Assembly: GCA_033853925.1 (NCBI GenBank)
Contig: JAWOLC010000011.1
Span: 978-64,977 of the forward strand
Reading direction: 5' to 3'
DNA from: Candidatus Eiseniibacteriota bacterium
GTDB taxonomy: Bacteria > Eisenbacteria > RBG-16-71-46
DNA length: 64,000 nt
A program made the translations under genes and the position numbers. A model generated the notes under the pieces. That model saw only the letters and a program-made list of their open reading frames with translations, was not told where the DNA came from and did no database searches. Below, piece by piece: positions 1,466 to 57,389 of this stretch. The first letter of the stretch is position 1, and every line of letters starts with the position of its first letter.

Positions 1466-1787
1466 AGTGGGGCGGTCACGGCGGGCTCCCTGGCATGGAT
1501 GGCGCACGAGATTCGACCATCGAGGCTGGAATCTAGGCGGGGCCTGCGGGAGCGTCAACGGGCCGCCGCGGTGCGAGCGCGCCTGCTCGGCCACCCTCGG
1601 GCCGCCCGCGCGCGCGTGCGCTCCCGCCTCGTCTTCCACGCCGCGAAGCGCGCGAGGGCTCGGGGCTGCCGGTCCGGGCCTTCGGATTGGCCCGAGGACC
1701 CCGGGAGACTGGGTGGACGGGCATCTCGTGGTCCGGCAGGGAGCCGGCCGGACGGGCCGGGGGGAGGCCGGGCCGTGCCCGAGCCGG

Positions 1788-2771
1788 CTACGGCACCAGG
1801 ACGGCTGCTCCCCTGAGCTTCCCCTCGCGCAGGCGGGCGAGGGCTTCGTTGGCCTGGGCGAGCGGGAAGGTCTCGGTCTCCGTGCGCACGGGCACGCGGG
1901 GCGCGAGCGCCAGGAACTCCTCGCCGTCCCGACGCGTCAGGTTCGCGACCGAGCAGAGGGTGCGCTCCTCCCAGAGCAGCTCGTAGGGGAACGAGGGGAT
2001 GTCGCTCATGTGGATGCCACCGCAGACCACGACGCCGCCCCGCGCCACGGCGCGCAGCGCCAGAGGCACGAGCGAGCCCACGGGGGCGAAGATGAGCGCC
2101 GCATCCAGCTCGACCGGCGGCCGCGCCGTGGAGTCGCCCGTCCACGCCGCGCCCAGCTCGCGGGCGAAGCGCTGAGCCGCCTCGTCGCCCGGGCGGGTGA
2201 AGGCGTAGATCTCCCGGCCCTGCCAGCGCGCGACCTGGGCGACGATGTGCGCGGCTGCCCCGAAGCCGTAGATCCCGAGCCGCCGCGCTTCGCCGGCCTT
2301 CGTCAGGGTGCGGTAGCCGATGAGCCCAGCGCAGAGCAGGGGCGCCGAGGCCACGTCCGCGTACGAGGGAGGCAGGGCGAAGCAGAAGCGCTCGTCGGCC
2401 AGGGTGTGCTCGGCGTAGCCGCCGTCCAGCGTGTAGCCCGTGAAGCGCGCGCGCGCACAGAGGTTCTCGCGGCCGTTGCGGCAGTAGTCGCACTCGCCAC
2501 AGGTCCACCCCAGCCAGGGGATCCCCACGCGCTGGCCGGGCGCGAAGCGCGTGACGCCGGGACCCAGGGCCTCGATCTCACCCGCGATCTCGTGTCCGGG
2601 AACGAGGGGCAGCTTGGGGCCGGCCAGCTCGCCGTCCACGACGTGCAGATCGGTGCGGCACACGGCGCAGGCGCGCACGCGCACGCGCACCTGGCCCGGC
2701 CCCGGGACGGGCAGGGGCAGCTCGCCCCAGCGCAGCGGCGAGCGGGCCCTGTCCAGGATCATCGCGCGCAT
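1788..2771 (-). CDS. Zn-dependent alcohol dehydrogenase (MDR superfamily)
   Basis: Start at the internal ATG (MRAMILD...) preceded by GGAGGG. Catalytic Zn motif GHEIAGEI, structural Zn site CGECDYCRNGRENLC, and Rossmann motif GIYGFGAAAH. The 66-aa N-terminal extension of the listed ORF is GC-rich junk. Confidence 0.85.
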   Translation of the reverse strand: MRAMILDRARSPLRWGELPLPVPGPGQVRVRVRACAVCRTDLHVVDGELAGPKLPLVPGHEIAGEIEALGPGVTRFAPGQRVGIPWLGWTCGECDYCRNGRENLCARARFTGYTLDGGYAEHTLADERFCFALPPSYADVASAPLLCAGLIGYRTLTKAGEARRLGIYGFGAAAHIVAQVARWQGREIYAFTRPGDEAAQRFARELGAAWTGDSTARPPVELDAALIFAPVGSLVPLALRAVARGGVVVCGGIHMSDIPSFPYELLWEERTLCSVANLTRRDGEEFLALAPRVPVRTETETFPLAQANEALARLREGKLRGAAVLVP

Positions 2772-2964
2772 GCTCGCTCCCTCCGAGGCTCCCGGCCCGT
2801 CGAGTACCGGCGGCCCGTCCGCCGCATGATACCCCGCCTGGCTCGGGGCGTCCGGGGCCGGGGCGTGCGCCGCAGCCGTGCCTTCCCTCGGCCTCGCTCC
2901 CGATGCATCATGCGCGGCATCGTCGGTCGTAGCCGTGTCCCCTCCCCCGCAGGAGAGCCGATCC

Positions 2965-3600
2965 ATGAAGAGCTACCTCACGGAGTTCGTCGGGACGTTC
3001 TTCCTCGTGCTCACGGTCTGCCTCGCCGCGCCCAGCACCCCCGCGCTCGCGCCGCTGGCGATCGGCGCGGCGCTTATGATCATGGTGTACATGGGCGGGC
3101 ACGTGTCGGGAGGCCACTTCAATCCGGCGGTCTCCCTGGCCGCCACGCTGCGGGGTGCCCTGCCGGGACGGCAGCTCGTGCCCTACTGGATCGCCCAGCT
3201 CCTCGGCGCGGTCGTCGCGGCCCTGCTCGCCTTGTACGCCCTGGGCAAACCGTTCGCCTGCGCGCCGGGCCCGCAGGCGAGCGCCGGCCAGGCCCTGCTC
3301 GTCGAGTTCCTCTTCACCTTCGCCCTGTGTCTCGTGGTGCTGAACGTGGCCACGGCGAAGAAGACCGCGGGCAACTCCTACTTCGGTCTCGCCATCGGCT
3401 TCACCGTCACGGTGGGCGCCTTCGCGGGCGGCGGCATCTCGGGCGGAGCCTTCAATCCCGCCGTGGGCTTCGGGCCGATCCTCGTCTCCTCGCTCGCGGG
3501 CGCGAGCGGGTGGACGAACCTCTGGCTCTACATCGTCGGCCCGCTCCTGGGCGGCGCGCTCGCGGCCGTGGTGTTCAACCTGCAGGGGGCGGGCGAGTAG
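2965..3600 (+). CDS. MIP/aquaporin-family channel
   Basis: Start MKSYLTEF preceded by AGGAGA. Six TM segments. Two NPA boxes (SGGHFNPAVS and SGGAFNPAVG). The second box is NPA-V rather than the canonical NPA-R. Confidence 0.85.
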   Translation: MKSYLTEFVGTFFLVLTVCLAAPSTPALAPLAIGAALMIMVYMGGHVSGGHFNPAVSLAATLRGALPGRQLVPYWIAQLLGAVVAALLALYALGKPFACAPGPQASAGQALLVEFLFTFALCLVVLNVATAKKTAGNSYFGLAIGFTVTVGAFAGGGISGGAFNPAVGFGPILVSSLAGASGWTNLWLYIVGPLLGGALAAVVFNLQGAGE

Positions 3601-3618
3601 GCCCAGCCGCGACGCGAA

Positions 3619-3655
3619 GGCGGGCGAGGAGAGGCGCACCCTCTCCTCACCCGCC
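3619..3655 (+). terminator. GC-rich hairpin downstream of the aquaporin gene (9+6 bp stem, 5-nt loop, no U-tract)
   Basis: ggcgggcGAGGAGAGGcgcacCCTCTCCTCacccgcc lies immediately after the stop at 3600. Confidence 0.4.
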
Positions 3656-3895
3656 CGTGACAAGCGTCTCTCCTTCGGCCCGCTCTCCCGGCGCCACTAC
3701 TGACGAACTCCTGGCGCCGCTCGCGCATCCCAAGTGCAATGCCGATCCGGCCGACGATCGGCACCCCCTGTCGCGGCGGGACCGCAAGGCCGCCGCCATC
3801 GCTCCTGAGTGGTGCGAGGTGAACATGCGGGCTCTTCGCTGCCGGCCGCGTCGCGTCATGGGCTGCCGCGCCCCTTCCCCGGTCGTCCCCGCCTG

Positions 3896-5593
3896 ATGTC
3901 GCTCTGTCTGACGGGCAGCGTGGGTGGCCGCTCCTCGGTCTGGCCGCTCCAGGGGGCGAGCCTGAGCGTCGGGCGCTCCTCGCGTAGCGGCGTGCAGATC
4001 CCCGATCCCACCGTGTCGAAGGAGCACGCCGAGATCACCCGGCGCGACGAGCGGTGGGTCATCCGCGACCTGGGCAGCCGCAACGGCACGCGGGTGAACG
4101 GCGTGGACGCCCTCGAGCCGATCCCGCTCGCCGAGGGGGATCTGGTCGAGGTGGGCAGCGTGCTCCTGCGCGTCGCCGCCGAGCGCGTGGAGGCGGCGAC
4201 GCAGTTCAGCCCCTCGCCGGGGCTGGGCTCGACCGTGAAGCTCGCGGCCCAGGACTTCCTGGGCCGCTCGGCGCCCTCGGGGGAGGCCGCGGCGCGGATG
4301 GTGCACGTGCTCGCCGAGGCGGGGCGCGTGCTGGTCCTCCCTCGCCCCCTGGCGGAGACCTGCGAGAAGATCCTCGAGCTGGTCGAGCGGGCCGTGCCCG
4401 CCTCGCGGCTCGTCGTCCTCCTGCGCGACGCGCCGGGGGCCGAGCCCGTGCAGATCGCGGCGCGCAGCCGGGGCGGGAGCGCCCGCGAGCCGCTGGCGCT
4501 CTCGCGAGCCATCCTCTCCACGGTGCTCGACGAGTGCACCTCGGTCGTGATCAGCGACGCCCGGCACGATCCCCGCTTCCAGGCGCGGCAGAGCATCATC
4601 GCGGCCGCGATCCACTCGGCCATGGCGGTGCCGCTCTTCGACAACGAGCGCGTGCTGGGACTGCTCTACGCCGACACTCGCGACTTCGACGTGACCTTCG
4701 GGCAGGAGCACCTGGAGGTGCTCACCCTGCTCGCCAACATGGCGGCGGTGAAGATCACGAACGCGCGGCTGCTCGAGGCGGAGCAGGCTCGCGCCCGCAT
4801 GGCGCAGGAGCTGGCCACGGCGGCGCGCATCCAGCGCGGGCTACTCCCCCCGGAGCCGCCGGTGCTCGACGGCTGGGAGATCGACGACTTCCTCGAGAGC
4901 TGCTACGAGGTGGGTGGCGACCTCTACGACTTCCACCTCCGCCCCGACGGCAAGCTCCTCTTCGTCGCCGGAGACGTGGTCGGGAAGGGGATGGGCGCGG
5001 CGCTCCTGATGTCCTCCTTCCTCGCGTCGGCGCGCGTGCTCTACGAGGCCTGTCCCGAGCCCGGGGTCCTGGCCACACGCCTGGGCGCGCTCCTCGAGCG
5101 CGAGGCGGAGCGGGGCCGCTTCGTGACGGGGGTCGTGGCCTGCCTCGACCCGCGCACCGGGCGCCTCGAATACGTGAACGCGGGCCACCCGCCGCCGTGC
5201 GTGATCGACGCTTCCGGGCTGAGACGCCTGGAGAGCACGGGTCCGCCCTTCGGGGTGGTCGCGGGCGTGGTCTACGAGCCCGGCGTGGCGACGATCGCAC
5301 CCGGCGAGCTGCTGGCGCTCTACAGCGACGGCCTGCCGGAGGCGCAGCACGGCGACGAGTTCTTCGACGAGGAGCGCCTGGCCTCGGCGCTGCGCGAGTC
5401 CTACGGACTGCCGCTGGCGGAGGCACGGCGCCGGGTGATCGAGCGGGTGAAGACGTTCCAGGCCGAGACGCCACGGGGCGACGACCTCACGCTGCTCCTC
5501 ATTCGCCGCGGTGGGAGCGCGGTGACCGGGGCCTCGTCCGCCGGCGTGAGCGAGAGCGAGGCGGCCGTGGCCCCGGGCGGAGCGGTCCGGTGA
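3896..5593 (+). CDS. FHA domain - GAF domain - PP2C/SpoIIE-type Ser/Thr phosphatase
   Basis: N-terminal FHA (LSVGRSSRSGVQIPDPTVSKEHAEITRRDERWVIRDLGSRNGTRVNG). Central GAF. C-terminal PP2C/SpoIIE (GGDLYDF, VAGDVVGKGMGAALLMS, YSDGLPEA). An alternative upstream ATG at 3809 is possible. The stop is 7 nt before the first kinase gene. Confidence 0.8.
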   Translation: MSLCLTGSVGGRSSVWPLQGASLSVGRSSRSGVQIPDPTVSKEHAEITRRDERWVIRDLGSRNGTRVNGVDALEPIPLAEGDLVEVGSVLLRVAAERVEAATQFSPSPGLGSTVKLAAQDFLGRSAPSGEAAARMVHVLAEAGRVLVLPRPLAETCEKILELVERAVPASRLVVLLRDAPGAEPVQIAARSRGGSAREPLALSRAILSTVLDECTSVVISDARHDPRFQARQSIIAAAIHSAMAVPLFDNERVLGLLYADTRDFDVTFGQEHLEVLTLLANMAAVKITNARLLEAEQARARMAQELATAARIQRGLLPPEPPVLDGWEIDDFLESCYEVGGDLYDFHLRPDGKLLFVAGDVVGKGMGAALLMSSFLASARVLYEACPEPGVLATRLGALLEREAERGRFVTGVVACLDPRTGRLEYVNAGHPPPCVIDASGLRRLESTGPPFGVVAGVVYEPGVATIAPGELLALYSDGLPEAQHGDEFFDEERLASALRESYGLPLAEARRRVIERVKTFQAETPRGDDLTLLLIRRGGSAVTGASSAGVSESEAAVAPGGAVR

Positions 5594-5600
5594 GCCTCCC

Positions 5601-6100
5601 GTGCCGCTGAGCATCGGCCGGCGCCTCGGTCCCTACGAGGTCCTCGCTCCGCTCGGTGCCGGGGGCATGGGCGAGGTCTACCGCGCGCGCGACACCCGGC
5701 TCGGGCGCGAGGTGGCGGTCAAGGTGCTGCCCGAGCACCTCTCGGCCCACCCGGAGGTGCGGGCGCGCTTCGAGCGCGAGGCCAAGACGATCTCCAGCCT
5801 CAACCACCCGCACATCTGCGCGCTCTACGATGTCGGCCACGACGAAGGCGTGGACTACCTGGTGATGGAGCTGGTGGAGGGGGAGACGCTCGCCGAGCGG
5901 CTCAAGCGCGGCCGGCTGCCGGCGGAGCAGGTGCTTCGCCTGGGAGCCGAGATCGCGGACGCCCTGGACAGGGCGCACCGCTCGGGCATCGTCCATCGGG
6001 ACCTGAAGCCGGGCAACATCATGCTCGCGAAGGCGGGGGTGAAGCTGCTGGACTTCGGGCTGGCGCGCGCGGCGCTGTCCGCGGCGGCCTCGGTGGACCT
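5601..6100 (+). repeat. Direct repeat from tandem gene duplication: the kinase-domain coding region here is about 85-90% identical at the nucleotide level to 8243..8740 and, more weakly, to 10915..11400
   Basis: Visible by aligning ccgctcggtgccgggggcatgggcgaggtctaccgcgcgcgcgacacccggctcgggcgcgaggtggcggtcaaggtgctgcccgag with ccgctgggagccgggggcatgggcgaggtctaccgcgcgcgcgactcgcggctcgggcgcgacgtggcgatcaaggtgctgcccgag. Confidence 0.7.
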
Positions 6101-8246
6101 CTCCAGCACGCCGACGCTCACGCGACCTCTCACCACGGAAGGCACGATCGTCGGCACGTTCCAGTACATGGCGCCGGAGCAGCTCGAGGGCAAGGAAGTG
6201 GACGCCCGCGCCGACATCTGGGCGCTCGGCGCGGTGCTCTACGAGATGGCGACGGGGAAGAAGGCCTTCGAGGGGGCGAGCCAGGCGAGCCTGATCGGCG
6301 CCATCATGAACAAGGAGCCGGCCCCGGTCAGCTCGCTCACCCCCGAGCCGCCCGGGCTGGACCGGGTGGTGAGCCGCTGTTTGGCGAAGGACCCCGACGA
6401 GCGCTGGCAGACGGCGCGGGACGTGGGGCACGAGCTGCGCTGGATCGCCGGGCAGACCTCGCAGTCGGGCGCTCCGGCGGTGGTCGCGCCGCGACGGCGG
6501 CCCCGCGAGCCGCTGGCCTGGGCGATCGCCGGCGTGGCGGGGATCGCCGCGCTCTCCACTGGGATCGTGGACCTCGAGCGGCCGGCCGTGGAGCCCTCCA
6601 CCCTGCGCTTCAGCCTCGCGGTGGCCGGGGCCAAATCCATCGAGTGGCCGCGCATCTCGCCCGACGGTCGCACCCTGGCGTTCCAGGCGGCCGACTCGAC
6701 CGGGAAGATCATGATCTGGGTGCGGCCGCTCAACTCCCTCACCGCGGTCCCGCTCCCCGAGACGGAAGGCGCCGGGCGCCCCTTCTGGTCGCCGGACAGC
6801 CGCTTCCTCGGGTTCTTCATGGGCAATCAGCTCAAGAAGGTCCCCGTCGCCGGCGGACCGCCGCAGCTCATCTGCGACGTGCGCGGGGGCGCCGACGGCT
6901 CGTGGGGCAGCCGGGGCGTGATCGTCTTCGACGGCGCCCAGGGCGACTCGATCCGGCAGGTCTCGGCCGAGGGCGGTGAGGCGAGCGCGGCGACGACCCT
7001 GGCCCGCGCGCGCGGCGACCTCTATCACGCCTGGCCCTGCTTCCTGCCCGACGGCCGGCACTTCCTGTACCTGGCCTTCGGGAAGAGCCGCGAGGACACC
7101 CGGCTCGAAGCCGGCAGCCTGGGCTCGCCGAAGACGGTGGACCTGGGCCGGGTCCAGACCCGCGTGGACTACGCGCCCGAGGGCTACGTGCTCTTCGCCA
7201 GCGAGGGGACGCTGATGGCGCGCCCGTTCGACGCGCGTGCCCTCCGCTTCACCGGCGAGCCGTTCCCCGTGGCCGAGCGGGTTCGCTGCGCCCCCGGCGA
7301 CCGGGCCAACCTCTCCGTCTCGCGCACCGGCATCCTGGCCTTCATGCCCGGGGTCGCGGCCGCCAACCGCGAGCTGGTCTGGGTGGACCGGACGGGCAAG
7401 ACGTTGAGCACCGTCGGCGTGCACGCCGCCTACAACGACCCCGCTCTCTCGCCGGACGGCACGCGGCTGGCGTACAGCGTCACGGATCCCGAGTCGGGGA
7501 ACGACGACATCTGGGTGCGCGACCTCAAGCGCGACGTCGCCTCCAAGCTCACCTTCGATCCGGGCAACGAGATCTGGCCCGCGTGGTCGCCCGACGGCAG
7601 CCGCATCGCCTACGCCTCGGACGCTCGCGGCCCCTTCGCGCTGGTGCAGCGGCTGGCCAGCGGCGCGGGCGGCGTGGACACGCTCTACCATTCCCTGGGG
7701 AGCTCGGGCCCCAGCGACTGGTCGCGAGACGGACGCTGGCTCACCTTCATGAACTTCGACGCCGGGCACGCGGACCTCTGGGCGCTGTCCCTGTCCGGCG
7801 ACCATCGGGCGCAGCCCTTGCTCAAGTCCCAATTCACCACGCGCGACCCGGTGCTGTCTCCCGACGGCAAGTGGCTCGCCTACTTCTCCAACGAGTCCGG
7901 GCACATGGAGGTGTACGTCCAGCCCTTCCCCGGACCCGGCGGCAAGTGGCAGATCTCGACGAATGGCGGAGTCGAGCCGCGCTGGCGAGGGGACGGCAAG
8001 GAGCTGTACTACCTCACGCCGGACAACGAGCTCATGGCCGTGCCGGTGAGCGCCGGGGCCACGTTCGAGGCCGGGATCCCGGTCAAGCTCTTCGAGCACG
8101 CCCTGCCGCCCGGCCCCGGGACGCGCAACCGCTACGTGCCGACGGCCGACGGCAAGCGCTTCCTGCTCGTCGCTCCGGTGGAGAGCCCCGCCGCCGAGAC
8201 CTTCACCGTGGTCCTCGACTGGACCGCCGAGGCACGGAAGAGATGA
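5601..8246 (+). CDS. Ser/Thr protein kinase fused to TolB-like PD40 beta-propeller (paralog 1)
   Basis: GTG start. Hanks kinase motifs [41 protein letters not shown]. Then a TM segment and PD40 repeats ([50 protein letters not shown]). Confidence 0.9.
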
Positions 8247-10918
8247 GCCTCGCACCCGGCCGGCGCCTCGGCCCCTACGAGGTCCTCGCCCCGCTGGGAG
8301 CCGGGGGCATGGGCGAGGTCTACCGCGCGCGCGACTCGCGGCTCGGGCGCGACGTGGCGATCAAGGTGCTGCCCGAGGAGTTCGCGCACGATCCGGCTCG
8401 GCTCGCGCGCTTCGAGCGCGAGGCCAAGGCGATCTCCAGCCTCAACCACCCGCACATCTGCGTCCTCTTCGACGTCGGGCGGGAGAACGGCACCGGCTAC
8501 CTGGTGATGGAGCTGGTGGAGGGGGAGACCCTGGCCCAGCGGCTCGAGCGCGGGCCCCTGCCCGCGGCGGAGGTCGTGCGGCTCGGCGTCCAGATCGCGG
8601 ACGCGCTCGAGCGCGCGCACGCCTCGGGGATCGTGCACCGCGATCTGAAGCCGGGCAACATCATGCTCACGAGGTCGGGGGCGAAGCTCCTGGACTTCGG
8701 CCTGGCGCGGCCGGCCGGCCTCGGCGCCGCCGGGAACGACACGAGCACGCCCACCCAGGCGCGGGCGCTCACGAGCGACGGGGCGATCGTCGGCACCTTC
8801 CAGTACATGGCGCCCGAGCAGCTCGAGGGCCGCGAGGCGGACGCTCGCAGCGACCTCTGGGCTCTGGGCTGCGTGTTGTACGAGGCGGCGACGGGGAAGC
8901 GGGCCTTCGAGGGCACGACGCAGGCGAGCCTCGTGGGCGCGGTCATGCGGGACCAGCCGAGGCCCATCGCGGAGCTGGCGCCTCTGGCGCCGCCGGGCCT
9001 GGAGCGCGTGGTGACCGCTTGCCTGGCGAAGGACCCGGCCGACCGCCTGCAGAGCGCGCACGACGCGAAGCTCCAGCTCCAGTGGATCGCCGAGGGCGGG
9101 TCGCAGGCCGGGGTGCCGGCGGCGAGGGCCGCGCGGCGCCGCAGCCGCGAGCGGTACGCCTGGGCGCTGGCGGGGCTCTTCGCCCTGCTCGCCGCGGGAT
9201 CCGCCGCGCCGCGGCTGTGGAGCCGCCCCGCCGCGCCGCGGAGCGCGCATGTGTCGGTCCTGCCCCCCGAGGACGCCATCATCGACGACGAGATGATGCA
9301 CACGGCGATTTCCACGGACGGCGGGTCGGTCGCCTTCGTGGCCACGGATGCCAGCGGCACGTCGCAGCTCTGGGTGCGGGAGTTGGCTTCGCCCCAGGCG
9401 CGGCCCCTGCCGGGCACGGAAGCCGCCACCCTGCCGTTCTGGTCGCCCGACAGCCGCTGGATCGGCTTCTTCGCCGAGGGGAAGCTCAAGAAGGTGGACG
9501 TGGCGGGGCGCAACGTGGAGATCCTCTGCGACGCGCCCGACGGCCGCGGCGGGACGTGGGGGCGCCGGAAGACGATCGTCTTCGCGCCGGCCTCGGCGGG
9601 CCCGCTGGAGAAGGTGTCCGAGGACGGCGGGCAGCCCGTGCCGGTGACGCGGCTGGACGCGAAGCGCGGCGAAGAGGCGCATCGCTTCCCCTCGTTCCTG
9701 CCGGACGGCCGGCGCTTCCTGTACGTGGCGCTGGCCCCGGGGATCAGGCTCGTGACGCGCCTCGGCTCCCTCGACTCGTGGACGGCGGATTCCCTGGTGA
9801 GCGCGGACGGCGCGGCGATCTACGCCGCGCCCGGCTACCTCATCTTCTCGCGCAACGAAGCGTTGCTCGCCCAGCGCCTGGACGAGGGAGGCCGCCGGCT
9901 GACGGGCGAGCCCTTCGCCCTGGGGCCCGCTCCTCGCGGCCTGAGCCTCTACTCGGGGGCGCCCGACGCGTCCGTCTCCGCCAACGGCGTCCTGGTCCAG
10001 CGCCATCGCGCCCCGCGCCGCTCCCGGCTCGCCTGGATGGACCGGGAAGGCCGCGTGCTCGAGACCTTGCCCACGCCGGCGGCCGAGTACGACACGCCCG
10101 TGCTCTCTCCGGACGCGCGCCACGTGGCCATCGGGCGCACCTCGCCGGAGACCATCAAGGACCTCTGGGTCGTGGATCTCGGGAGCGGCGTGGCGAGCAA
10201 GCTGACGACCGATCGCCTCTACGCCGAGAGCCCGGTCTGGTCGCCGGACGGCCGCACGATCGCCTTCTCGTCCCTGGTCGGTGGCGACCGCGTGATCTTC
10301 ACGCGGCTGGCGAGCGGCGCCGGCGACGTGACCCCGCTCGTCCGCCTCGACGGCCCCTTCAACGATCCCGCCTGCTGGTCCGCCGACGGCCGCGAGATCT
10401 TCCTGCGCCGCCTGGATCCGCAGACCGGCGAGGACGTCTGGGTCCTGCCCCTGGAGGGCGGGCGCAGGCCCTATCCGCTGCTCCACAGCCCCTATCACGA
10501 GGAGGACCCGAGCCTGTCGCCCGACTGTCGCTGGCTGGCCTTCCGCTCGAACGAGTCGGGGCGCACGGAGCTGTACGTGCAGTCCTTCCCCGTGCCGGAC
10601 GCCAAGCTGAGGATCTCCACCGACGGCGCGGGGACCTCGCCGCGCTCGGGCTCGGGCCAGCCCTTCTGGCGGAAGGACGGCCGGGAGCTTCTCTACCTGG
10701 CCGGGGACGGCGTCACCATGATGTCCGTGCCGATCGAGACGGCTGGCGGCTTCCACGCCGGGACCCCGCGAGCGCTCTTCCGCGTCCCGGCCGACTGCAA
10801 CGCGATCGTGGCCACCCCCGACGCGCAGCGCTTCCTGGTACTGCGCGAAGAGAGCAGCAAGGAGGGGACCTCGGTCCAAGTGGTTCTGAACTGGCCGGCG
10901 GAGCTGAGGCAGCGATGA
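8243..10918 (+). CDS. Ser/Thr protein kinase fused to TolB-like PD40 beta-propeller (paralog 2)
   Basis: ATG at 8243 overlaps the upstream stop as ATGA. The kinase domain is about 80% identical to paralog 1. PD40 repeats follow. The first 660 nt of the listed ORF (from 7583) are an out-of-frame overlap with paralog 1. Confidence 0.9.
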
Positions 10919-13485
10919 CGCTCGTTCCTGGCAGGCGGCTCGGTCCCTACGAGATTCTCGGTCCGCTCGGCGCGGGCGGCATGGGCGAGGTGTGGCGCGC
11001 GCGCGACTCCCGGCTCGGGCGGGACGTGGCGATCAAGGTGTTACCCGACGAGTTCGCGCACGATCCCGCGCGACGCTCGCGCTTCGAGCGCGAGGCCAAG
11101 GCGATCGCGGCGCTCTCGCACCCGAACGTCCTCGCCCTGCACGACTTCGGCGCGGACGACGGGGCGATCTACGCGGTGATGGAGCTGCTCGAGGGCACGA
11201 CCCTGCGCGAGCGGCTGGCCGGCGGCCCGCTCTCCCCGCGCAAGGCGGTCGACTACGCGATCCAGATCGCGCACGGGCTCGCGGGGGCGCACGAGAGAGG
11301 CATCGTCCATCGCGACCTCAAGCCCGAGAACGTGCTCGTCACCCCGGACGGGCGGGTCAAGATCCTCGACTTCGGCCTGGCCCGGCTGGATCCCTACCAG
11401 AGCGACGGCGACACGCAGACGCCGACGCTCGCGGGCGCCACCCGCCCGGGGGCGGTCCTGGGCACGGTCGGCTACATGGCGCCCGAGCAGGTGCGGGGCG
11501 AGACGGCCGACGCCCGCGCGGACATCTTCTCCCTCGGGGCGCTTCTCTACGAGATGCTCTACGGCCGCCGGGCCTTCCAGCGTGACACGGCTGCCGAGAC
11601 CATGACGGCGATCCTGCGCGAGGATCCGCCGCCCCCACCCGCCGACACGAAGGTTCCCCCGGCCCTGGACCGCGTCGTGCGGGGCTGCCTGGAGAAGGCC
11701 CCCGGAGAGCGCTTCCGCTCGGCGCACGACCTGGCCTTCGCCCTGGAGATGGCCCTCGGCTCCAGCACCTCGCAGGCTGCGGCCGTGGCCGCGGCGAAGC
11801 CGCGGCGCGGCTCCCGCCTGCTGCTCGCGGGCGGCGTCGCGGTTCTCGTCCTGCTCGTGGCCGGGGCGCTCCTCGCCGGCGCGGCCCGCCGGTCCCGGCC
11901 CCTCTTCTATCGCCAGCTGACCTCCGAGCGGGGCAGCGTGGTCTCGGCGCGCTTCTCGCCCGACGGTCAGACCGTGGTGTACGGCGCCGCCTGGGTCGGC
12001 CACCCGCTCGAGCTGTTCTCCACCCGCACCGACGGCTTCGAGTCCCGCTCGCTCGAGCTGCCCTCCGGAGACATTCAGTCCATCTCCCGGACGGGCGACA
12101 TGCTCCTCCTCTCGGGGCGACGGAATCTCCAGAGCTGGATGGCCGTGGGAACGCTTGCCCGGGCCTCGTTCTCGGGGGGTGGGCAGCGGGACATCCTGGA
12201 CGGGGCCAGCGCCGCGGATCTCTCCCCCGATGGGGGGAAGACCGCGGTCGTGCATCGGGTCGGGGGCATGGATCAGCTGGAGTGCCCGCCGGGAACGCCC
12301 CTCTACCGGACCCTGGGCTGGATCGGGACGCCGCGCTTCAGCCCGAACGGCCAGCGCCTCGCCTTCATCGAGCATCCGCTGTTCGGCGACGATCGCGGCT
12401 ACCTCATGGTCGTGGACCTCGGCGGCGGCCGGCCGGCGCGGCTCACGGACGAGTACTCGAGCTTCCAGGGCCTCGCCTGGGCGGGCGGGGGCCGCGAGCT
12501 GTGGTTCACCGCCACGGCCGACAGCGACGCCTATTTCACGCTCTACGCCACCTCCGGCTCGCGCCGGACCCGAGTCGTGCTCTCGGCGCCCGTGGACCTC
12601 GTCATCCAGGACGTCAGCCCACGCGGCGTCGCCCTGCTCTCCGCGAACCAGAGCACGGGCGAGATCGCCGGGCGCTTCCCCGGGCAGGAGAGCGACCGGC
12701 TCGTGGACTTCTACGCCCAGTCCTCCACCGGCGGCCTGTCGGCTGACGGTCGCACGCTGGCGGTCACCTACGCCGGCGCGGGCAGCGGCTTCGACTACTC
12801 GGTGTGGATCATCCGTGCGGACGGCTCGCCCGCGGAGCACGTGGGCGAGGGCGCGGCGCGCGCGATCTCTCCCGACGGGAAGTGGGTGGTCACCACCTTC
12901 GCCTCGGCCCCGAGCCGACTGGAGCTGCTCTCGACGGGCACCGAGGCGTCGAGGAGCTTCGACCTCGGCGGCATCGCCCCGACGGTCAACATCGGCACGC
13001 CCATCACCTGGACCCGCGACGGCTCGGCCTTCCTCTTCACCGGGCGGACGGCGAAGAGCGGGACCCGCTCCTATCTCTTCCGCGTCGCCAAGGGCTCGGC
13101 CCGGCCGGTGACCCCCGAGAACACGAGCGACGCCCTCCTCTCGCCCGACGGGAGCGAGGTGCTGGCCCGCGACGCCGCGGGCTTCGCCCTGTGGCCGCTC
13201 GCGGGCGGCGAGCCGCGCAGGGTGCCCGCCCTGCGCGACGACGACATCCCCTTGCAGTGGGAGGCCTCGGGTGGGTCGGTCTTCGTCTGGAACGGCAGCT
13301 TCCCGGCGCACGTCGAGCGGCTGGACCTGGACACGGGTCGTCGCTCGCCGTGGACCACCATCACGCCGCCCGATCCCTCGGGCGTGCTCTACGGGAACCT
13401 GCTCCTCACCCCCGACGGGAAGTCCTACGTCTACCGCTACCGCCGCTGGCTCTCGAATCTCTTCGTCGTGAGGGGATTGCACTGA
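10915..13485 (+). CDS. Ser/Thr protein kinase fused to TolB-like PD40 beta-propeller (paralog 3, more divergent)
   Basis: ATG at 10915 overlaps the upstream stop (ATGA). Motifs [40 protein letters not shown] segment follows ([22 protein letters not shown]), then PD40-like repeats. Confidence 0.9.
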
Positions 13486-13600: not shown

Positions 13601-14965
13601 ATGCGCTCTCACCTGCTCGCGGTCTGGTTGCTCGCGCTCGCCGGCGGCCTGGCGGCCGCCCCTTCGCCGGCGGCCGCGGTCCCGGCACCCTCCGCCTCCC
13701 TGCGGATGGTCCTTCCCTTCCTCTCCGACGATTACACCAAGGCGCTCGCCGAGGCGCGGGCGCGCCAGGTGCCGCTCTTCATCGAAGCCTGGGCGCCCTG
13801 GTGACACACCTGCCGGTCGATGAGGGCCTACGTCTTCACGGACTCGACCCTCACGCGGCACGCCGGACGGTTCGTCTGGCTCGAGCTGGACACGGAGAAG
13901 GCGAAGAACGCGGCCCTGAAGAAGAAGCTGGGGGTGGCGGCCCTGCCCACTTATTTCGTCCTGGACCCGGCGGACGAGAAGGTGCCCTTGCGCTGGACGG
14001 GTGCCTTCACCGTCGCCCAGCTGGATCGCCTGCTGGATGACGGCTCCGCCGCGGTGAGCGGCCGCCGGGGCACGGGGCTCGCGGACGCCGCGCTGGCCCG
14101 GGCCGACAGCGCCAACGGCGCCGGCGACTACGCCGGCGCGGCGACCGCCTATCGCCAGGCGCTGGCGGCCGCGCCCGCCGGTTGGCCGCCGTACGCTCGC
14201 GCGGTGGACGCGGCGCTGTTCGCGCTCTCGAGCGCCGAGAGCAACGAGGCGGCGGCGCGGCTGGCGCGCGACGCGTTCCCGCGGCTGGCGAGCACACCCT
14301 CGGCCGCCAGCGTGGCCGCGAGCGGGCTGGAGGCGGCGCTCGGACTGCCGCGGTCCCACCCGCAGCGCCGGGAGCTGATCGGGGCCATGGAGGCCGACGC
14401 GCGCGCCGTCCTCGCCGACAGCACCCTGGCGATCGCGGCCGACGACCGCTCCGGCCTCTACATCGATCTCATCAGCGCGCGCAAGGACGTGGTGGACCTG
14501 GGCGGCGCCCACGCGCTGGCGTTGGCCTGGGCGGCATTCCTCGAGCGCCAGGCGGCCGCGGCTCGCACGCCCGAGCAGCGCACGGTCTTCGATTCGCACC
14601 GGCTCTCCGCCTATCTGGAGCTGGGAACTCCGGAGAAGGCGATCCCCATGTTGCAGGCCTCCGAGCGCGACCTGCCCGACGACTACAACCCGCCGGCGCG
14701 CCTGGCGGTGACGTACCTGGCGCTGAAGCGCTGGGACGACGCGCTGGCGGCGTCGGATCGCGCGCTGGCCCGCGCGTACGGCCCGCGCAAGCTCGCGCTC
14801 CTCGCGACCCGCGCCGACATCTACGCGGGGAAGGGCGACGCGCCGGCGGCGCGCAAGACGCTCGAGGAGGCGATCGCGCTCGCGACCTCGCTGCCGCCCG
14901 GCCAGCAGTCCGAGAGCACCCTCGCGTCGCTCAAGCGGAAGCTCGACGCGATCAAGCCGTCCTGA
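13601..14965 (+). CDS. Exported thioredoxin-fold (Thioredoxin_7-like) protein with C-terminal TPR-like domain. It carries an in-frame TGA at 13802-13804 exactly at the first position of the CxxC motif, making it a candidate selenoprotein (UxxC)
   Basis: The ORFs 13601..13804 and 13820..14965 are in the same frame (219 nt apart). The 15 nt between them also read open (HTCRS). Read-through gives a signal peptide followed by ...VPLFIEAWAPW-[TGA]-HTCRSMRAYVFTDSTLTRHAGRFVWLELDTEKAKNAALKKKLGVAALPTYFVLDP... This is a complete thioredoxin fold with W-x-x-C and a cis-Pro PTYFVLD loop, followed by about 300 aa of TPR-like helices. Confidence 0.7.
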
Positions 14966-16055
14966 CGCCGCCGAACAGGTGCATCCAGAGGAAGTCCACC
15001 GCGGCATGGGTGAGCGCCGAGGCGGTCGCCCGGCGCGTGCGCATCCACACCCATCCGTACGCGAGCCCCGCCAGCGTGGCGAGCAGGGCGTAACGCAGGT
15101 CGGGTCGCGGCGGCTCGTCCAGATGCGCCGCGCCGAAGACGAGCGAGGCGAGAGCCAGGGCGGCCGCCCGCCCGCCGCGGCCCGGCCAGGAGCGCTCGAG
15201 GAAGTTCTGGATCAGGCCGCGGAAGAGCACCTCCTCCGGGCAGGCGACGCCCAGGTAGATCGCCAGCGCGCTCACCGCCCGCTCGAGCGGGCCCAGGTGC
15301 GGCCCGCCCGGGCGGATGAAGCCGCTGGCGAGGCCGAGAGGGATGGCCAGCGCGGCGAAGGCCGCGAGGCCGACCGCGGCGTGAGCGAGGTCCCGGCGGC
15401 TCAAGGCGAAGGTGTAGCCCACCCGGGGCACGTGCGCCTGGACCACGAAGACCAGCAAGCCGAGAGCGAAGAGCGCGAGGTGCGTGGCGTCGAAGGCCTG
15501 CGCGGCGCCGGCGGGAAGGCGCAGGCCGCCCACGAGCCGGAACTCCGCGGGCAGCCAGAAGACGAGCAGCGCGGCGAGGAAGGGGAGCCGGGCGGGAAAC
15601 GCGGGCGGGCCTGGCCGGCTCGGATCCGCGAGGGGGACGGCGGACGCGGGGCGCAGCCCCCCGCCGACGACGATCACGGCGATGCCGTAGACGGCGAGCC
15701 GGAGCAGCTCCGCGGGCACGAGCGCGTGGCACGCCGCCGCGTAGCCCGCGTAGGCGAGCAGCGCTAGGATCCACAGCCCCCCCGAGCGCAGCCGGGGCGC
15801 AGGCGCCAGCCAGGCGCGCAGGCCGGCGCGCCAGGGGCGAACCGAGAGCAGGACGCAGGGGATGAAGAAGAGCGCGAAGGCGGCGCCAGCGGCCGCCGCG
15901 GCCGCGGCTCCGGCGCCGCTTCGCCGGGCGAAGAGCGCGAAGGCGCCGAGCCCCGACGCGGCGAGCGCCAGGGCGATGGCGGCCTCGCGAGGCGCGCGCG
16001 ACCCCGGTGCCTGGGCTGCGCTCGAGCCCGTGGGGTTCGTGGCGCTCGTGCTCAT
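14952..16055 (-). CDS. CPBP-family intramembrane metalloprotease (CAAX protease/bacteriocin-processing type)
   Basis: All three CPBP motifs in the C-terminal half: EEVLFRG (EExxxR), FGAAHL (FxxxH) and HAAVDF (HxxxD). Multiple TM helices. Start taken at the only in-frame ATG (MSTSATN, 16053-16055). The upstream part of the listed ORF is junk. Start position is uncertain. Confidence 0.65.
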   Translation of the reverse strand: MSTSATNPTGSSAAQAPGSRAPREAAIALALAASGLGAFALFARRSGAGAAAAAAAGAAFALFFIPCVLLSVRPWRAGLRAWLAPAPRLRSGGLWILALLAYAGYAAACHALVPAELLRLAVYGIAVIVVGGGLRPASAVPLADPSRPGPPAFPARLPFLAALLVFWLPAEFRLVGGLRLPAGAAQAFDATHLALFALGLLVFVVQAHVPRVGYTFALSRRDLAHAAVGLAAFAALAIPLGLASGFIRPGGPHLGPLERAVSALAIYLGVACPEEVLFRGLIQNFLERSWPGRGGRAAALALASLVFGAAHLDEPPRPDLRYALLATLAGLAYGWVWMRTRRATASALTHAAVDFLWMHLFGGVRTA

Positions 16056-16635
16056 GTTCGAGTGGCTCGTGGCTCCGCGCGCGCCGGCGCCGGTCGTCGT
16101 CGCGGCGCTGGCGCTCCTCGCTCTGCTCCCGGTGGGCTCGAGCCGGCTGCACGGAGACGGGCTCCGGGATCTGGGCTTCCGCCGGGACAACCTCGCCCGC
16201 GCGGCCCGGGAGGCCGGGCTGGCCACCGCCTCCCTGGCCGTGGTCGTGCTCGTCCTCAGCGCGCTCTCGCGGAACGGGCTTCACCTGCGACCCGGGATCG
16301 CGCTGGCCCTCGCGGGCTATCCCTTCTGGGGGCTGGCGCAGCAGTATACGCTCCAGGGGTTCGCCTATCGCCGGCTGCGGGCGGGCCTCGGCTCCGCGCG
16401 CGCGGCGGCGCTCGTCGCCGCGCTTCTCTTCGGCGCCGTCCACTTCCCCAACCCGGCGCTCCTCGTGAGCACCGCGCTCGCGGGCTACGTGTGGTGCCGG
16501 CTCTACGAGCGTGAGCCGAACCTCTACGCGCTGGCGCTCTCGCACGCGTTGCTGGCGGCGCTCCTCCTCGCGGCGCTGCCCCGCGGGTGGCTCCATACGC
16601 TGCGCGTGGGGCCGGGCTACTGGCTGCACCTCTGA
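15862..16635 (+). CDS. CPBP-like membrane protein with degenerate catalytic motifs (possible inactive paralog)
   Basis: TM helices plus FGAVHF (FxxxH). The EExxxR position reads QQYTLQG and the third motif reads HALLA (no N/D). MKKSAKA looks like a genuine N-terminus. An alternative ATG at 16054 overlaps the minus-strand start codon. The 5' end is ambiguous. Confidence 0.45.
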   Translation: MKKSAKAAPAAAAAAAPAPLRRAKSAKAPSPDAASARAMAASRGARDPGAWAALEPVGFVALVLMFEWLVAPRAPAPVVVAALALLALLPVGSSRLHGDGLRDLGFRRDNLARAAREAGLATASLAVVVLVLSALSRNGLHLRPGIALALAGYPFWGLAQQYTLQGFAYRRLRAGLGSARAAALVAALLFGAVHFPNPALLVSTALAGYVWCRLYEREPNLYALALSHALLAALLLAALPRGWLHTLRVGPGYWLHL

Positions 16636-16653
16636 GCCCGCGGGGGGGCGCGC

Positions 16654-17685
16654 TCAGCGCGGCCGGTCGCCCGCGAGGGGACGGCGCGTGCGCACGGCCT
16701 CGACCACGTCCCGGACGGCCGCGACGACCTCCTTGGCGTAGCGGGGATCGGCGACGATCGAGCCGTGGCTCGCCCCGACCACGACGCGCTGCACGCCGTC
16801 CGTGGAGAGCGCCGCATTCCGCCCCTGGAAGCGCGCCCAGGCTCCCCAGCGCCGCGCGCTCCGTCCGGCGGTCAGGACCACGACCGGGCGCGAGCCCAGC
16901 CCGTCGAGCCGGCCCACCTCTCGATTCGTGAGCGGCGCCCACGCCCGCAGCTCGGCCACGATGCCCCGCCACTGCGGGGCCGAGGACATGAAAGCCCTCT
17001 GCTCGGCGCGATCGCGCGGCGGGAGCTGGTCGATGTCCGTGGGGAGGAAGAGGAGCGCCGCCCGCATCACGCCGATCCGCGCGAGGAACGGCGCCGCGGG
17101 CAGCGACGCGGCGAGCGGGCCCAGCCAGCGCGGCCCGCGTCGCCGAGGGCCGCCGAACTGGGCGGGGTGCGAGGACTCCACGAGCACGAGCCCGGCGACC
17201 TCCGCGGGATAGAGGTGCGTGAACATGCGCGCGATCAGCCCTCCGTACGAATGGCCGACGTACACGTACGGTCCGGAGAGGCCCGCGCTCGCCAGCGCCG
17301 CGTGCAGCTCCGTCGCCAGGCGGCGAGTGTCGCGGGGCAGGGGACCGGGATCGCTCCAGCCCAGCCCCGCGCGATCGTAGGCCACGACGGGGGCGAACAC
17401 GGCCACCGCCGGCTCCACCCAGCCCCAGCTCGCGGAGGTGGCGCCGCCGATGCCCGACTCCAGGATCACGACCGGGCCGCGTTGCCCGACGCCGCTCACC
17501 ACCACGTGGAGCCGGTGTCCTCCCGCGTCCACGAGGCGACCCACGAAGGGAATCGCCCGCCGGTCGAGCCGCTCCGCGATTGCCTCCCAGATCGCGCCCG
17601 CCAGGGCCAGGGCGACGAGACCGAGGCCGAGGCCGGCGACGAGGCGGCCGCTGCGGACCAGCCAGCGCGGCGAAGACAGGCTCAT
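16654..17685 (-). CDS. Membrane-anchored alpha/beta hydrolase
   Basis: N-terminal TM anchor. Nucleophile elbow GHSYGG. Oxyanion-hole region VVILESGIGG. Confidence 0.8.
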   Translation of the reverse strand: MSLSSPRWLVRSGRLVAGLGLGLVALALAGAIWEAIAERLDRRAIPFVGRLVDAGGHRLHVVVSGVGQRGPVVILESGIGGATSASWGWVEPAVAVFAPVVAYDRAGLGWSDPGPLPRDTRRLATELHAALASAGLSGPYVYVGHSYGGLIARMFTHLYPAEVAGLVLVESSHPAQFGGPRRRGPRWLGPLAASLPAAPFLARIGVMRAALLFLPTDIDQLPPRDRAEQRAFMSSAPQWRGIVAELRAWAPLTNREVGRLDGLGSRPVVVLTAGRSARRWGAWARFQGRNAALSTDGVQRVVVGASHGSIVADPRYAKEVVAAVRDVVEAVRTRRPLAGDRPR

Positions 17686-17990
17686 TCAGGCTCCAGGGCG
17701 AAGCAGGCACGGGCCCGTGGCCCGAGAGGAGGCACCCGGGAAGGCGTCCACAGAACTCACTGCCGGCCAGGAAGCTGGCGTATTCGCTTCGAGTTGATCG
17801 TCAAGGCCGTGCACATCGCCTCTCCGGGGCGAGGCCCCATCGAGTTCGCTCCGCTCCAGCCGACACTACCTTGAGACGAGGTCGGGTCGGCCGGGGATCC
17901 TCCGGCTCCGACGTGCCCGGCAGGCGGGGTGGTCCCGGATCGCGCTCCCCTGCGAACAGGCTCTCGTCCTCGAAGAGGGGAAGGACCTCG

Positions 17991-28654: not shown

Positions 28655-28664
28655 CGGGGGACAC

Positions 28665-31600: not shown

Positions 31601-32258
31601 GCGGAACCCGGCGAAGTTCCAGCTCTGGGCCCACACGGACACGGGCGACGTGCGTCTCAAGTTCCGCTTCAACGACCTGCCCTCGGGCAGGGGAGACGGC
31701 ACGCTCGACTCGCTGGGCGAGTGGATCGAGGTCATCGCCCCCGGCCCGCCGGTGCGCGTGGACTCGCTCGTGGCCTGGCGCATCCAGGTGGATCCGAGCG
31801 GGCCGCACGGCCGCCCCGACGTGGTCCCGCCCGGTGCCGGCGACGTCTACGACCTGGTCGTGGTCCGCCCCCTGAACCCCTCGGACCGCTTCCTCTTCAG
31901 CAGCGGCGGCGAGCGCGTCGACGCCGCGAAGGCCGCGACGGACTACGCCAGCAAGCCCTACGTGGTGCCCAATCCGTACGTGGGCGCCGCCGCCTTCGAG
32001 CCCGAGCGCTTCGCCGTCTCGGGGCGCGGCGACCGGCGCATGGAATTCCGCAACCTGCCGCAGAACGCCACGGTGCGCATCTACACCGTGCGCGGCGACC
32101 TCGTGCGCACCCTGCGCCAGGACGGCTCGCTGAACGGCTACGTGGCCTGGGACCTGCGCACCAAGGACAACCTGGACGTGGCTCCGGGCCTCTACATCTT
32201 CCACGTCGAAGCTCCCGGCGCGAACGGCTACGTCGGGAAGTTCGCGATCATCAAATGA
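28665..32258 (+). CDS. Large (1197 aa) secreted protein of unknown function with FN3-like region and C-terminal FlgD-Ig-like / T9SS-type sorting domain
   Basis: GTG start 11 nt after the upstream stop. Signal peptide. Asp-rich putative Ca-binding stretch GIDNDNDGITDESRDGG. C-terminus VVPNPYVGAAAFEP...VRIYTVRGDLVRTL...GYVAWDLRTKDNLDVAPGLYIFHVEA...KFAIIK. Confidence 0.8.
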   Translation: MRERGASSARRSPGDPRWLVLLLAGLGLGAAAAASADCPTLAPPGDQSRCADPGGRTRFTLSGTGAEQCAWVLLPGQSSGVYRVALGSPTGCEVGVDVFSDGPCTVAVQWTGRAGSDSACVLRDTVYLAVVPGPGPRGTIDAERSGFLDANRIRTVFWNYGMVGDYPQDPANVDLSVFHSVEVPKGSGMNYTDGITPFVMARIAQAAGDTAIIMETGFRERQGISPLHNRVMRFEPRPGFFQADPLINRGRSPAISNDPRTWPSAWPDKKYDPDDAGWPGSWDGYFGKRAAADEESFTVMDDDFYDAWDYAPDACDPDRRGLGLKVEVRGFQWANPQAGNVVFWHYDITNESTTDYDDNIIFGLYMDSGVGGSALSCDGIYESDDDNAYFDRSSGLNLVYTWDTYGHGVDLAGNCSPTGYLGYAYMETPGNPYDGIDNDNDGITDESRDGGPGQLIVGQTAIREYAAAHYDLAKFEAFYGPLENRPAYRAGRWWTGDEDMDWTAEFDDVGADGVPNTFDTGEGDGIPTDGEPHFDRTDKDESDQIGLTGFKMNRIKAGVGNPNPATDDILFYTDAHHWPERLWQHFTDPNPAARFDSAVAANYNIGFLFASGPFKLPPGKRERFSLALAYGQDLAELRETVHTVQLIYNANYQFAVPPTLPTASAEAGDGYVRLSWDDAAERSLDPVTNTFDFEGYRIYRATDPEFRDPQIVPTGSTQLWLPNGKPIAQFDLADGRKGYSRKVINGIGYYLGTDSGIRHTWTDTTVTNGQEYYYAVCAYDYGYDPGADSLAIYPSENSITVSRTPRGGLILPRNVVQVRPNPRVPGYVPGSSSGVTKVAGNGTGAVGIRVVNSGLVPDGHLFTVGFVTTSPDSIHATSYVLRDSTSRRTLFSTGSDFDSLGTGPSGAGLLPLVRSVEQCSVDGRASGFRSGSGTNVTLSTYYANSAMPMNLKRLGYPDNLTIVFDSTFADTGLGWGPVRRNPAKFQLWAHTDTGDVRLKFRFNDLPSGRGDGTLDSLGEWIEVIAPGPPVRVDSLVAWRIQVDPSGPHGRPDVVPPGAGDVYDLVVVRPLNPSDRFLFSSGGERVDAAKAATDYASKPYVVPNPYVGAAAFEPERFAVSGRGDRRMEFRNLPQNATVRIYTVRGDLVRTLRQDGSLNGYVAWDLRTKDNLDVAPGLYIFHVEAPGANGYVGKFAIIK

Positions 32259-57198: not shown

Positions 57199-57389
57199 AG
57201 CGCCCGAGGTCGCAGCCCCGAGCGGCCTGAGCGATGTCTTCGCGGTCCTCGCCGGCGAGCGCGGCCGCGAGCGTGCCCCCTCTTTGGCAGCGTCTTCACA
57301 CCGCCGGACGCGCGCGGAGCGAGACTGCCTCGACGCGGTGACCGGAGGTTCCTCCTGCGGCCTCCCGCACGCCCCGGAACCCTTCGGCG

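Follow-up and report, generated by a model that had tools for sequence, protein, structure and literature searches.

The genes for a receptor Hanks kinase, a PPM phosphatase and one or more FHA readers lie together in the mycobacterial pknA/pknB-pstP-fhaA/fhaB systems, and likewise in the PpkA-PppA-Fha1 pathway of the Pseudomonas type VI secretion system. In both cases, the FHA domain and the phosphatase are separate proteins, and the ectodomains of the kinases are of the PASTA or vWA type. Another receptor Hanks kinase, PknD of Mycobacterium tuberculosis, is linked to partner-switching regulators and has an extracytoplasmic beta-propeller, which is a single six-bladed NHL propeller. The phosphatases RsbU, SpoIIE, RssB and SiaA work with GHKL-type kinases and STAS-like substrates. 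In plants, the phosphatase KAPP, which has a kinase-interaction (KI) FHA domain N-terminal to a PPM/PP2C domain in one polypeptide, binds to and down-regulates a number of receptor Ser/Thr kinases with a single membrane pass, and Arabidopsis KAPP dephosphorylates CLV1 (PMC2553837). The operon DRA0331-DRA0334 of Deinococcus radiodurans encodes a vWA protein, a Ser/Thr protein kinase (STPK), an FHA protein and a KI-FHA-PP2C phosphatase, and this last protein, DRA0334, dephosphorylates STPKs in vitro (bioRxiv 10.64898/2026.01.23.701218). Work on Sorangium in 2010 described separate FHA- or GAF-fused SpoIIE-like phosphatases and found that the co-organization of kinases and phosphatases is rare there (PMC2887360). 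Here, we analyzed a stretch of 64,000 nucleotides (nt), hereafter the window, from an uncultured soil bacterium of Candidatus Eisenbacteria (contig JAWOLC010000011.1, positions 978 to 64,977). It includes a locus where the gene of a soluble FHA-phosphatase stands head-to-tail with three genes of membrane receptor kinases. We suggest that this locus is a receptor-kinase signaling cassette with a KAPP-like docking feedback phosphatase, a reading to which we give about an even chance.

The elements of the locus are the following, in window positions.

3601-3895, plus strand: intergenic region 5' of gene 1, 295 nt, from the stop of an aquaporin gene (3600) to the ATG at 3896
3896-5593, plus strand: gene 1, FHA-GAF-PP2C phosphatase (SpoIIE/RsbU-type) of 565 amino acids (aa), from the ATG at 3896 to the TGA stop at 5591-5593
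3965-4156, plus strand: FHA domain, aa 24-87 of gene 1 (Pfam PF00498, 66 bits, E 4e-18, cutoff 20.7)
4349-4756, plus strand: GAF domain, aa 152-287 of gene 1 (Pfam PF01590, 57.4 bits, E 3e-15, cutoff 22.4)
4943-5509, plus strand: PP2C domain of the SpoIIE/RsbU subfamily, aa 350-538 of gene 1 (Pfam PF07228, 157.8 bits, E 4e-46, cutoff 25)
5601-8246, plus strand: K1, receptor Hanks Ser/Thr kinase; kinase domain aa 12-273, transmembrane segment aa 305-323 (nt 6513-6569), ectodomain aa ~336-881
8243-10918, plus strand: K2, Hanks kinase paralogous to K1; transmembrane segment aa 305-323 (nt 9155-9211)
10915-13485, plus strand: K3, more distant kinase paralogue; transmembrane segment aa 302-320 (nt 11818-11874), stop at 13483-13485

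The order of the genes and their junctions are exactly those given by a first-pass annotation made from the letters of this DNA, and the translational-coupling signals that it claimed are borne out. A gap of 7 nt separates the TGA of gene 1 (5591-5593) from the GTG of K1 (5601), and ATGA overlaps join K1 to K2 (8243-8246) and K2 to K3 (10915-10918). The GTG at 5601 is supported as the start of K1, because the 14 aa of the N terminus that it yields align residue by residue with those of K2 and K3. The GC content is 72-78% over the first 20 kb of the window and ~74% across the four genes. Since DNA of such high GC content yields many long spurious open reading frames (ORFs), we chose reading frames by their third-position GC content (GC3), and all four genes lie in the high-GC3 coding frame.

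Our Pfam searches recovered in gene 1 each of the three domains that had been assigned to it, and the match to PF07228 spans positions 1-191 of the 192 in the profile. The residues of the FHA domain that bind phosphothreonine (G26-R27, S41-K42-x-H44 and N63-G64-T65) are invariant in 25 orthologues. The same holds for the acidic residues of the PP2C domain (D342/D345, D360, D478 and D529/D530), whose motifs GGD..D, GDVxGKG, SDG and DDxT we take, from what is known of PPM motifs, to be the metal sites. The helical linker that follows the GAF domain (aa ~288-320) is highly conserved, and its consensus, NARLLEAEQxRARMAQELATATRIQRGLLP, is nearly invariant in the orthologues. The protein has no transmembrane segment and is thus soluble. 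Its FHA domain is closest, among solved structures, to GarA/OdhI, FhaA, EmbR and KAPP, which include the mycobacterial FHA proteins GarA, FhaA/TB39.8 and EmbR; the KI-FHA of KAPP (1mzk) was found by a profile of the gene 1 orthologues with an E of 1e-6.

Hence, gene 1 shares with KAPP an FHA domain placed N-terminal to a PP2C domain in one polypeptide. This likeness is one of sequence and has limits: KAPP is eukaryotic, membrane-anchored, devoid of a GAF domain and built on a PP2C domain of the PF00481 type, whereas gene 1 encodes a soluble protein with a GAF domain, a linker and a PF07228 domain. The Deinococcus operon is alike in that it joins, in a bacterium, a Hanks kinase and a phosphatase with its own FHA-type docking domain. 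However, that FHA domain is divergent and lacks the canonical motifs, whereas the GR, SxxH and NG motifs are invariant in gene 1. The Deinococcus operon also lacks a GAF domain, has a PP2C domain of another subfamily, and encodes one kinase without a propeller as well as a separate FHA protein that is absent here. The locus resembles the mycobacterial and Pseudomonas systems in encoding the three functions together, but fuses two of them and uses propellers as ectodomains. As for the RsbU/SpoIIE/RssB/SiaA group, gene 1 has the same PF07228 catalytic subfamily and an N-terminal regulatory domain joined to it by a helical linker. It differs from this group in having a regulatory region that starts with an FHA domain, in lacking GHKL or STAS genes nearby among the genes scanned, and in scoring far below the cutoffs of the NCBIfam equivalogs. 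None of the curated NCBIfam families reaches its cutoff for any of the four proteins.

The three kinases have full-domain Pfam matches to Pkinase (PF00069; E 2e-50 for K1, 2e-48 for K2 and 2e-49 for K3; 166-172 bits). Each has one hydrophobic segment ~30 residues past the kinase domain, preceded by an Arg-rich stretch, in line with the Hanks kinase and transmembrane segment first proposed for these genes; the segment of K2 is weak (Kyte-Doolittle 1.42). This fits a topology with the N terminus inside and the C terminus outside, in which the kinase domain would be cytoplasmic and the C-terminal region periplasmic. We examined 12 phosphatase-adjacent kinases, i.e., K1-K3 and nine related ones. 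In all of them the G-loop, the VAIK Lys, the alphaC Glu, HRD, DFG and APE are intact, and an [S/T]-P-T motif is common to their activation loops. They are RD kinases, a class that usually depends on the phosphorylation of the activation loop. The model of the PknB/Stk1 PASTA kinases (NF033483) matches K1-K3 in the kinase domain only, with 299-305 bits against a cutoff of 450, so these are not PASTA kinases. No further kinases were found in the window.

The association between the phosphatase and the kinases can be assessed across genomes. Homologues of gene 1 form more than 1,400 clusters, and the best 120 all have the FHA-GAF-SpoIIE architecture, with 56-72% identity apart from the entry of the window itself (100%). 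In a scan of species-representative genomes, we found full-length orthologues of 45-60% identity in metagenome-assembled genomes (MAGs) of Candidatus Eisenbacteria, and distant full-length relatives (31-38% identity) in Acidobacteriota. A source among the Eisenbacteria agrees with other genes of the window, which encode a TonB-dependent receptor, T9SS sorting tails and glycoside hydrolases. We counted linkage in 20 orthologue contexts from Candidatus Eisenbacteria, the window included, in which the phosphatases are 45-72% identical and the flank available was of 1-10 kb. A kinase-propeller gene directly adjoins the phosphatase in 8 of the 20, in three different orientations. Kinases are directly downstream in the window (three), in the metagenomic contig L006 (four; phosphatase 72% identical, with the same 7-nt gap and 4-nt overlaps), in the contig P0009 (two), and in L004, L008 and L013 (one each). 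One kinase is directly upstream on the same strand in L011, and one is convergent in L001, where the 3' ends overlap. In addition, L009 has two kinases downstream of the phosphatase, the first of them 3.8 kb away. The other 11 contexts have no kinase within the available flank, and their neighbors are unrelated (an amidohydrolase, a PEGA protein, oxidoreductases). All the 14 kinase domains in the ~334 kb of orthologue loci sit in phosphatase-associated arrays. The linkage is thus frequent and kept across orientations and at least two clades of kinases, without being obligatory. That it survives changes of orientation argues for function rather than mere inheritance.

Two observations concern the contexts themselves. 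L008 (DATKKS010000084.1) and L011 (DATKKS010000075.1) come from one MAG labelled "Candidatus Saccharimonadales," in which the FHA-GAF-SpoIIE gene occurs as two paralogues, each with a kinase-propeller gene at its side. The encoded phosphatases are 57-60% identical to Eisenbacteria proteins, and the bin is probably mislabelled or contaminated. In L009, the first of the two kinase genes (15168-17720) misses ~55 N-terminal residues of the kinase domain in frame, and what precedes it in frame is unrelated sequence; the copy is either decaying or affected by a frameshift or assembly error.

These counts bear on the possibility that the genes are neighbors without any specific link, the phosphatase being a general Ser/Thr phosphatase of the phylum, the kinases a large mobile paralogue family that has expanded here, and the overlaps a result of compact packing. 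The loci differ in how many kinases they carry (0-4), and the genes are not in the same order in L006 as in the window. Kinase-propeller proteins also occur in huge numbers, since clustering at 90% identity gives at least 7,932 clusters for one and at least 4,072 for the other of the two types described below, and in L018 the gene that follows K3 in the window directly follows the phosphatase, which suggests that the kinases were inserted into an older synteny. However, chance proximity sits poorly with adjacency in 8 of 20 contexts, in three orientations and with kinases of at least two clades, and with the lack of kinase genes elsewhere in the same ~334 kb. Moreover, an FHA domain fused to a phosphatase would have no obvious role in the absence of a Thr kinase partner. 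We therefore regard this explanation as improbable. Still, the phosphatase is linked to these kinases without being strictly dedicated to them, as the first-pass annotation had called it, given the contexts that have no kinase in their flank.

How could such a cassette work? In the KAPP-like reading, K1-K3 would be single-pass proteins of the inner membrane, exposing to the periplasm large and probably double-propeller ectodomains for different ligands. Activation by ligand would lead to the autophosphorylation of the threonines of the [S/T]-P-T motifs in the activation loops. The FHA domain of gene 1 would dock, in the simplest case, on these phosphothreonines of the kinases, or else on phosphothreonines of a shared substrate. 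Docking would place the Mn/Mg-dependent PP2C domain at the kinases, allowing it to dephosphorylate and reset them. The GAF domain and the helical linker may gate the phosphatase, as regulatory domains gate activity in other RsbU/SpoIIE-type phosphatases, so that a cytoplasmic cue could set the gain of up to three extracytoplasmic inputs. Co-translation from one mRNA would maintain the stoichiometry. We infer all the biochemical steps in this chain, the transcription of the genes as one unit, and what the ligands and substrates would be. We favor this reading because of the domains and junctions of the genes, the invariant residues of the FHA and PP2C domains, the intact motifs of the RD kinases and the predicted topology. 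It is further favored because the linkage recurs, with every kinase domain of the orthologue loci lying in a phosphatase array, and because KAPP and DRA0334 provide precedents. Finally, no STAS or anti-sigma-kinase gene was seen nearby: we found no gene for a STAS protein or a GHKL anti-sigma kinase near the 12 orthologues examined or in the scanned genes of the window, which cover most but not all of its 64 kb.

Several points weigh against the KAPP-like reading. Gene 1 has a catalytic domain of the RsbU/SpoIIE type. The solved proteins nearest to it in the Protein Data Bank are RssB, Rv1364c, SiaA and SpoIIE, none of which is known to act on Hanks kinases. The myxobacterial phosphatome survey left undecided whether Hanks kinases are opposed at all by SpoIIE-like phosphatases (PMC2887360). 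The lack of a kinase within the flank of 11 of the 20 contexts implies that the phosphatase is not tied to these particular kinases, and it may have other targets. Last, the KAPP-like binding, the dephosphorylation and the single transcript are all predictions made from genome sequence. The "write/erase" module proposed in the first-pass annotation is thus in a mixed position, as comparative linkage supports it while the solved relatives of the PP2C domain are not erasers of Hanks kinases; we consider this function of the phosphatase and the kinases plausible.

The same points raise the possibility, which we hold as the main, though tentative, alternative, that the phosphatase is the output of the kinases and not their eraser. 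The kinases would then generate a phosphothreonine on the phosphatase itself, e.g., in the linker between FHA and GAF, or on a scaffold, and its binding by the FHA domain would switch the PP2C domain on or off. The latter would dephosphorylate a different substrate, for example an anti-sigma antagonist of the STAS type or some other regulator whose gene lies elsewhere, coupling periplasmic signals to transcription. Such a relay is what the RsbU/SpoIIE subfamily and its solved relatives would suggest, and annotators at JGI named the homologues of gene 1 RsbU. The phosphatases are 57-72% identical with or without kinase neighbors, as expected of a hub with its own substrate. The binding of an intramolecular phosphothreonine by an FHA domain is also the mechanism of GarA/OdhI, the closest solved FHA domains. 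Furthermore, there is a precedent in M. tuberculosis, where the propeller-type receptor kinase PknD has the anti-anti-sigma homologue Rv0516c as a substrate (PMC1847690). What speaks against the relay is that no gene for a STAS protein, an anti-sigma kinase or a sigma factor adjoins the phosphatase in the window genes scanned or in the neighborhoods examined, a search that did not extend to whole genomes. In L003, one gene of the sigma-70 family lies 3 kb upstream of the phosphatase.

The ectodomains of K1-K3 had been described as TolB-like PD40 propellers. They are ~520-550 aa long and all-beta, i.e., ~2x the size of the TolB propeller. The PD40 scores are 116.8 bits for K1, 91.2 for K2 and 34.8 for K3 (cutoff 20.9), with four significant repeats in K1 and two in K2; the score of K3 is a sum in which no single repeat is significant. 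We modeled two of the ectodomains with AlphaFold (AF2), the one of K1 from alignments of homologues. Both models, K1 (predicted local distance difference test [pLDDT] 88.9) and K3 (pLDDT 91.2, predicted TM-score [pTM] 0.86), are entirely beta, with ~40-45 strands each. In Foldseek searches, the K1 model matched TolB over about half of its length (TM-score normalized to the query ~0.35), as well as the double propellers of tricorn protease, LRP6 and WD proteins of the SSU processome. The best matches of the K3 model were double propellers: 2ymu, Aip1 ("two seven-bladed propellers"), LRP6 and tricorn. The ectodomains are thus probably tandem (double) propellers, as judged from the fold matches and the number of strands rather than from coordinates. 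TolB is the best solved sequence match of the K1 ectodomain (E 3e-16 over 150 aa) and one of its top fold matches, and the two share PD40 repeats, but the N-terminal alpha/beta domain of TolB is absent from K1-K3. The TolB equivalog (TIGR02800) gives 98, 81 and 27 bits for K1, K2 and K3 against a cutoff of 343, so these are not TolB proper. The initial description therefore stands for the PD40 repeats of K1 and K2 and the all-beta fold, and was too narrow for the rest: the ectodomains are of double size and below the TolB cutoff, and that of K3 belongs to a separate, barely PD40-like family. The comparison with PknD leads to a similar view. The likeness lies in a receptor Hanks kinase with an extracytoplasmic beta-propeller, but the ectodomains here are PD40-like and ~2x the size of the PknD propeller, and the NCBIfam model named PknD (NF009651, PRK13184) gives 166 bits against a cutoff of 839.

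Both types of ectodomain are found fused to kinases in large numbers in metagenomes, the K1 type in the larger and the K3 type in the smaller of the two sets of clusters given above. Their main sources are Eisenbacteria and Acidobacteriota (Thermoanaerobaculia, Terriglobales), and the name given to both by annotators is "protein kinase / Tol biopolymer transport system component." Our literature search on PD40-type bacterial kinases returned only irrelevant papers, and the one combining Eisenbacteria and kinases returned nothing on this module.

The kinases have an old history as paralogues. The kinase domains of K1 and K2 are 70% identical, and that of K3 is 52-57% identical to either, whereas the ectodomains are 43% identical between K1 and K2 and 23-25% between K3 and either of them. 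The ectodomains have thus diverged faster, as the first reading of diverging propellers had it. We built neighbor-joining trees separately for the kinase domains and the ectodomains, and both gave the same pairings between K1-K3 and the kinases of L006: K1 with L006_b (76% identity in the kinase domain, 66% in the ectodomain), K2 with L006_a (84% and 74%) and K3 with L006_c (80% and 75%). This agreement led us to reject domain shuffling for K1-K3 and their L006 orthologues. The placement of the L008 kinase differs, weakly, between the two trees. The order in L006 is K2'-K1'-K3'-K4', the fourth kinase being K3-like. Because K1, K2 and K3 each have a one-to-one orthologue in L006, the triplication is older than the split between the two genomes, with all copies kept and their order changed. 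Hence, the genes first called tandemly duplicated do form a paralogous array, but an old one and not a set of recent copies.

What precedes gene 1 required a choice between frames. An ORF of 809 aa (1467-3896, plus strand), whose end overlaps the start of gene 1 in a TGATG, might be taken for a fifth coupled gene; we rejected it for its lack of a Pfam match and because the reading frames of high GC3 in this stretch are those of other genes. On the minus strand, these are a TPR gene (2-1554) and an alcohol dehydrogenase (ADH)-like gene (1788-2966); on the plus strand, there is an aquaporin gene (2878-3600), which is the true upstream neighbor of gene 1. Since the long ORF is spurious, gene 1 is preceded by the 295-nt intergenic region, which we presume to contain its promoter. 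Our scan, weak and uninformative for this phylum, found no sigma-70-like promoter in this region, in the gene junctions or directly after the stop of K3, and no terminator-like site in the junctions or directly after that stop. Three terminator-like sites were found elsewhere (1.5 expected from shuffles): one inside K1 (on its minus strand), one inside K3 and one in the gene that comes next. An Rfam scan of the whole window gave no match, and hence neither a leader nor a riboswitch.

The gene that follows K3 raises an additional question.

13601-14965, plus strand: gene encoding a signal peptide, a thioredoxin fold with W-U-H-T-C and TPR repeats; in-frame TGA at 13802-13804

The TGA lies in the context FIEAWAPW-[TGA]-HTCRSM, and full-length homologues have a Cys at this position (WAPWCHTC), while many others are gene calls that start at a Met five codons past the TGA. 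The same in-frame TGA is present in five independent loci: the window, L087 (2767-4140), L018 (~11660-13064), L004 (1748-3166) and L005 (~6302-7696). The 70 nt after it are 92% identical between the window and L087, for proteins that are 65% identical, and they can form a hairpin, a candidate selenocysteine insertion sequence (SECIS). The product is likely a selenocysteine (UxxC) protein, as judged from these features; no tRNA-Sec was found in the window. This Trx-TPR gene recurs close to the phosphatase gene, in varying positions. It follows the kinases in the window and immediately follows the phosphatase in L018; in L005 and L004 it lies upstream, at a short distance and at 6 kb, respectively. 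In the P0009 contig it probably follows the kinases, as judged from a pair of gene calls of 73 and 362 aa. This synteny suggests either an older phosphatase/Trx-TPR neighborhood that later received the kinase array or a functional tie.

A broader evolutionary proposal is more speculative still, and we think it rather unlikely to hold in full. By the gain of an FHA domain, an RsbU/SpoIIE-type lineage would have been rewired from partner switching to Hanks-kinase signaling, becoming a hub across the phylum Candidatus Eisenbacteria, with relatives in Acidobacteriota. Such a hub would integrate a cytoplasmic cue, sensed by the GAF domain, with 0-4 double-propeller receptor kinases encoded at the locus, and it might also be tied in function to the adjacent periplasmic selenocysteine thioredoxin-fold/TPR protein.

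The rest of the window holds other genes. Next to the Trx-TPR gene, two overlapping ORFs (14952-16226, minus strand, and 15862-16635, plus strand) both match the Rce1-like CAAX protease family; one may be partly a shadow of the other, or they may be two adjacent convergent genes. A cluster resembling those for polysaccharide utilization (~23700-50300) encodes a protein with a type IX secretion system (T9SS) sorting tail, a TonB-dependent receptor with CarboxypepD_reg, a protein of 1,205 aa without Pfam match (28641-32258), two glucoamylase-like proteins, a LacI regulator, an F5/8 type C protein of 1,306 aa, a GH94 phosphorylase and a GH35/42 galactosidase. Further downstream, a two-component/sigma-54 cluster (57342-62660) encodes a HAMP histidine kinase, an NtrC-type sigma-54 activator, two small proteins without Pfam match and a PAS hybrid histidine kinase. 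This cluster has no relation to the phosphatase-kinase locus, in a region that is rich in signaling genes.

Cassettes of Hanks kinases, PPM phosphatases and FHA proteins were already known, as were propeller-type receptor kinases, and the locus reveals no new principle in this respect. Its novelty lies in a combination of known parts: FHA and GAF domains together on an RsbU-type phosphatase, the coupling of this phosphatase to an array of double-propeller receptor kinases, and the conservation of this arrangement in an uncultured phylum. If the KAPP-like reading is true, the locus would be a compact bacterial counterpart of the arrangement of KAPP and receptor kinases in plants. It would also provide a clear case of a SpoIIE/RsbU-type phosphatase that opposes Hanks kinases, a question left open by the myxobacterial survey (PMC2887360). 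Finally, it would offer a first way into the study of two highly abundant families of receptor kinases of soil bacteria with double-propeller ectodomains, which comprise at least 7,900 and at least 4,000 clusters.

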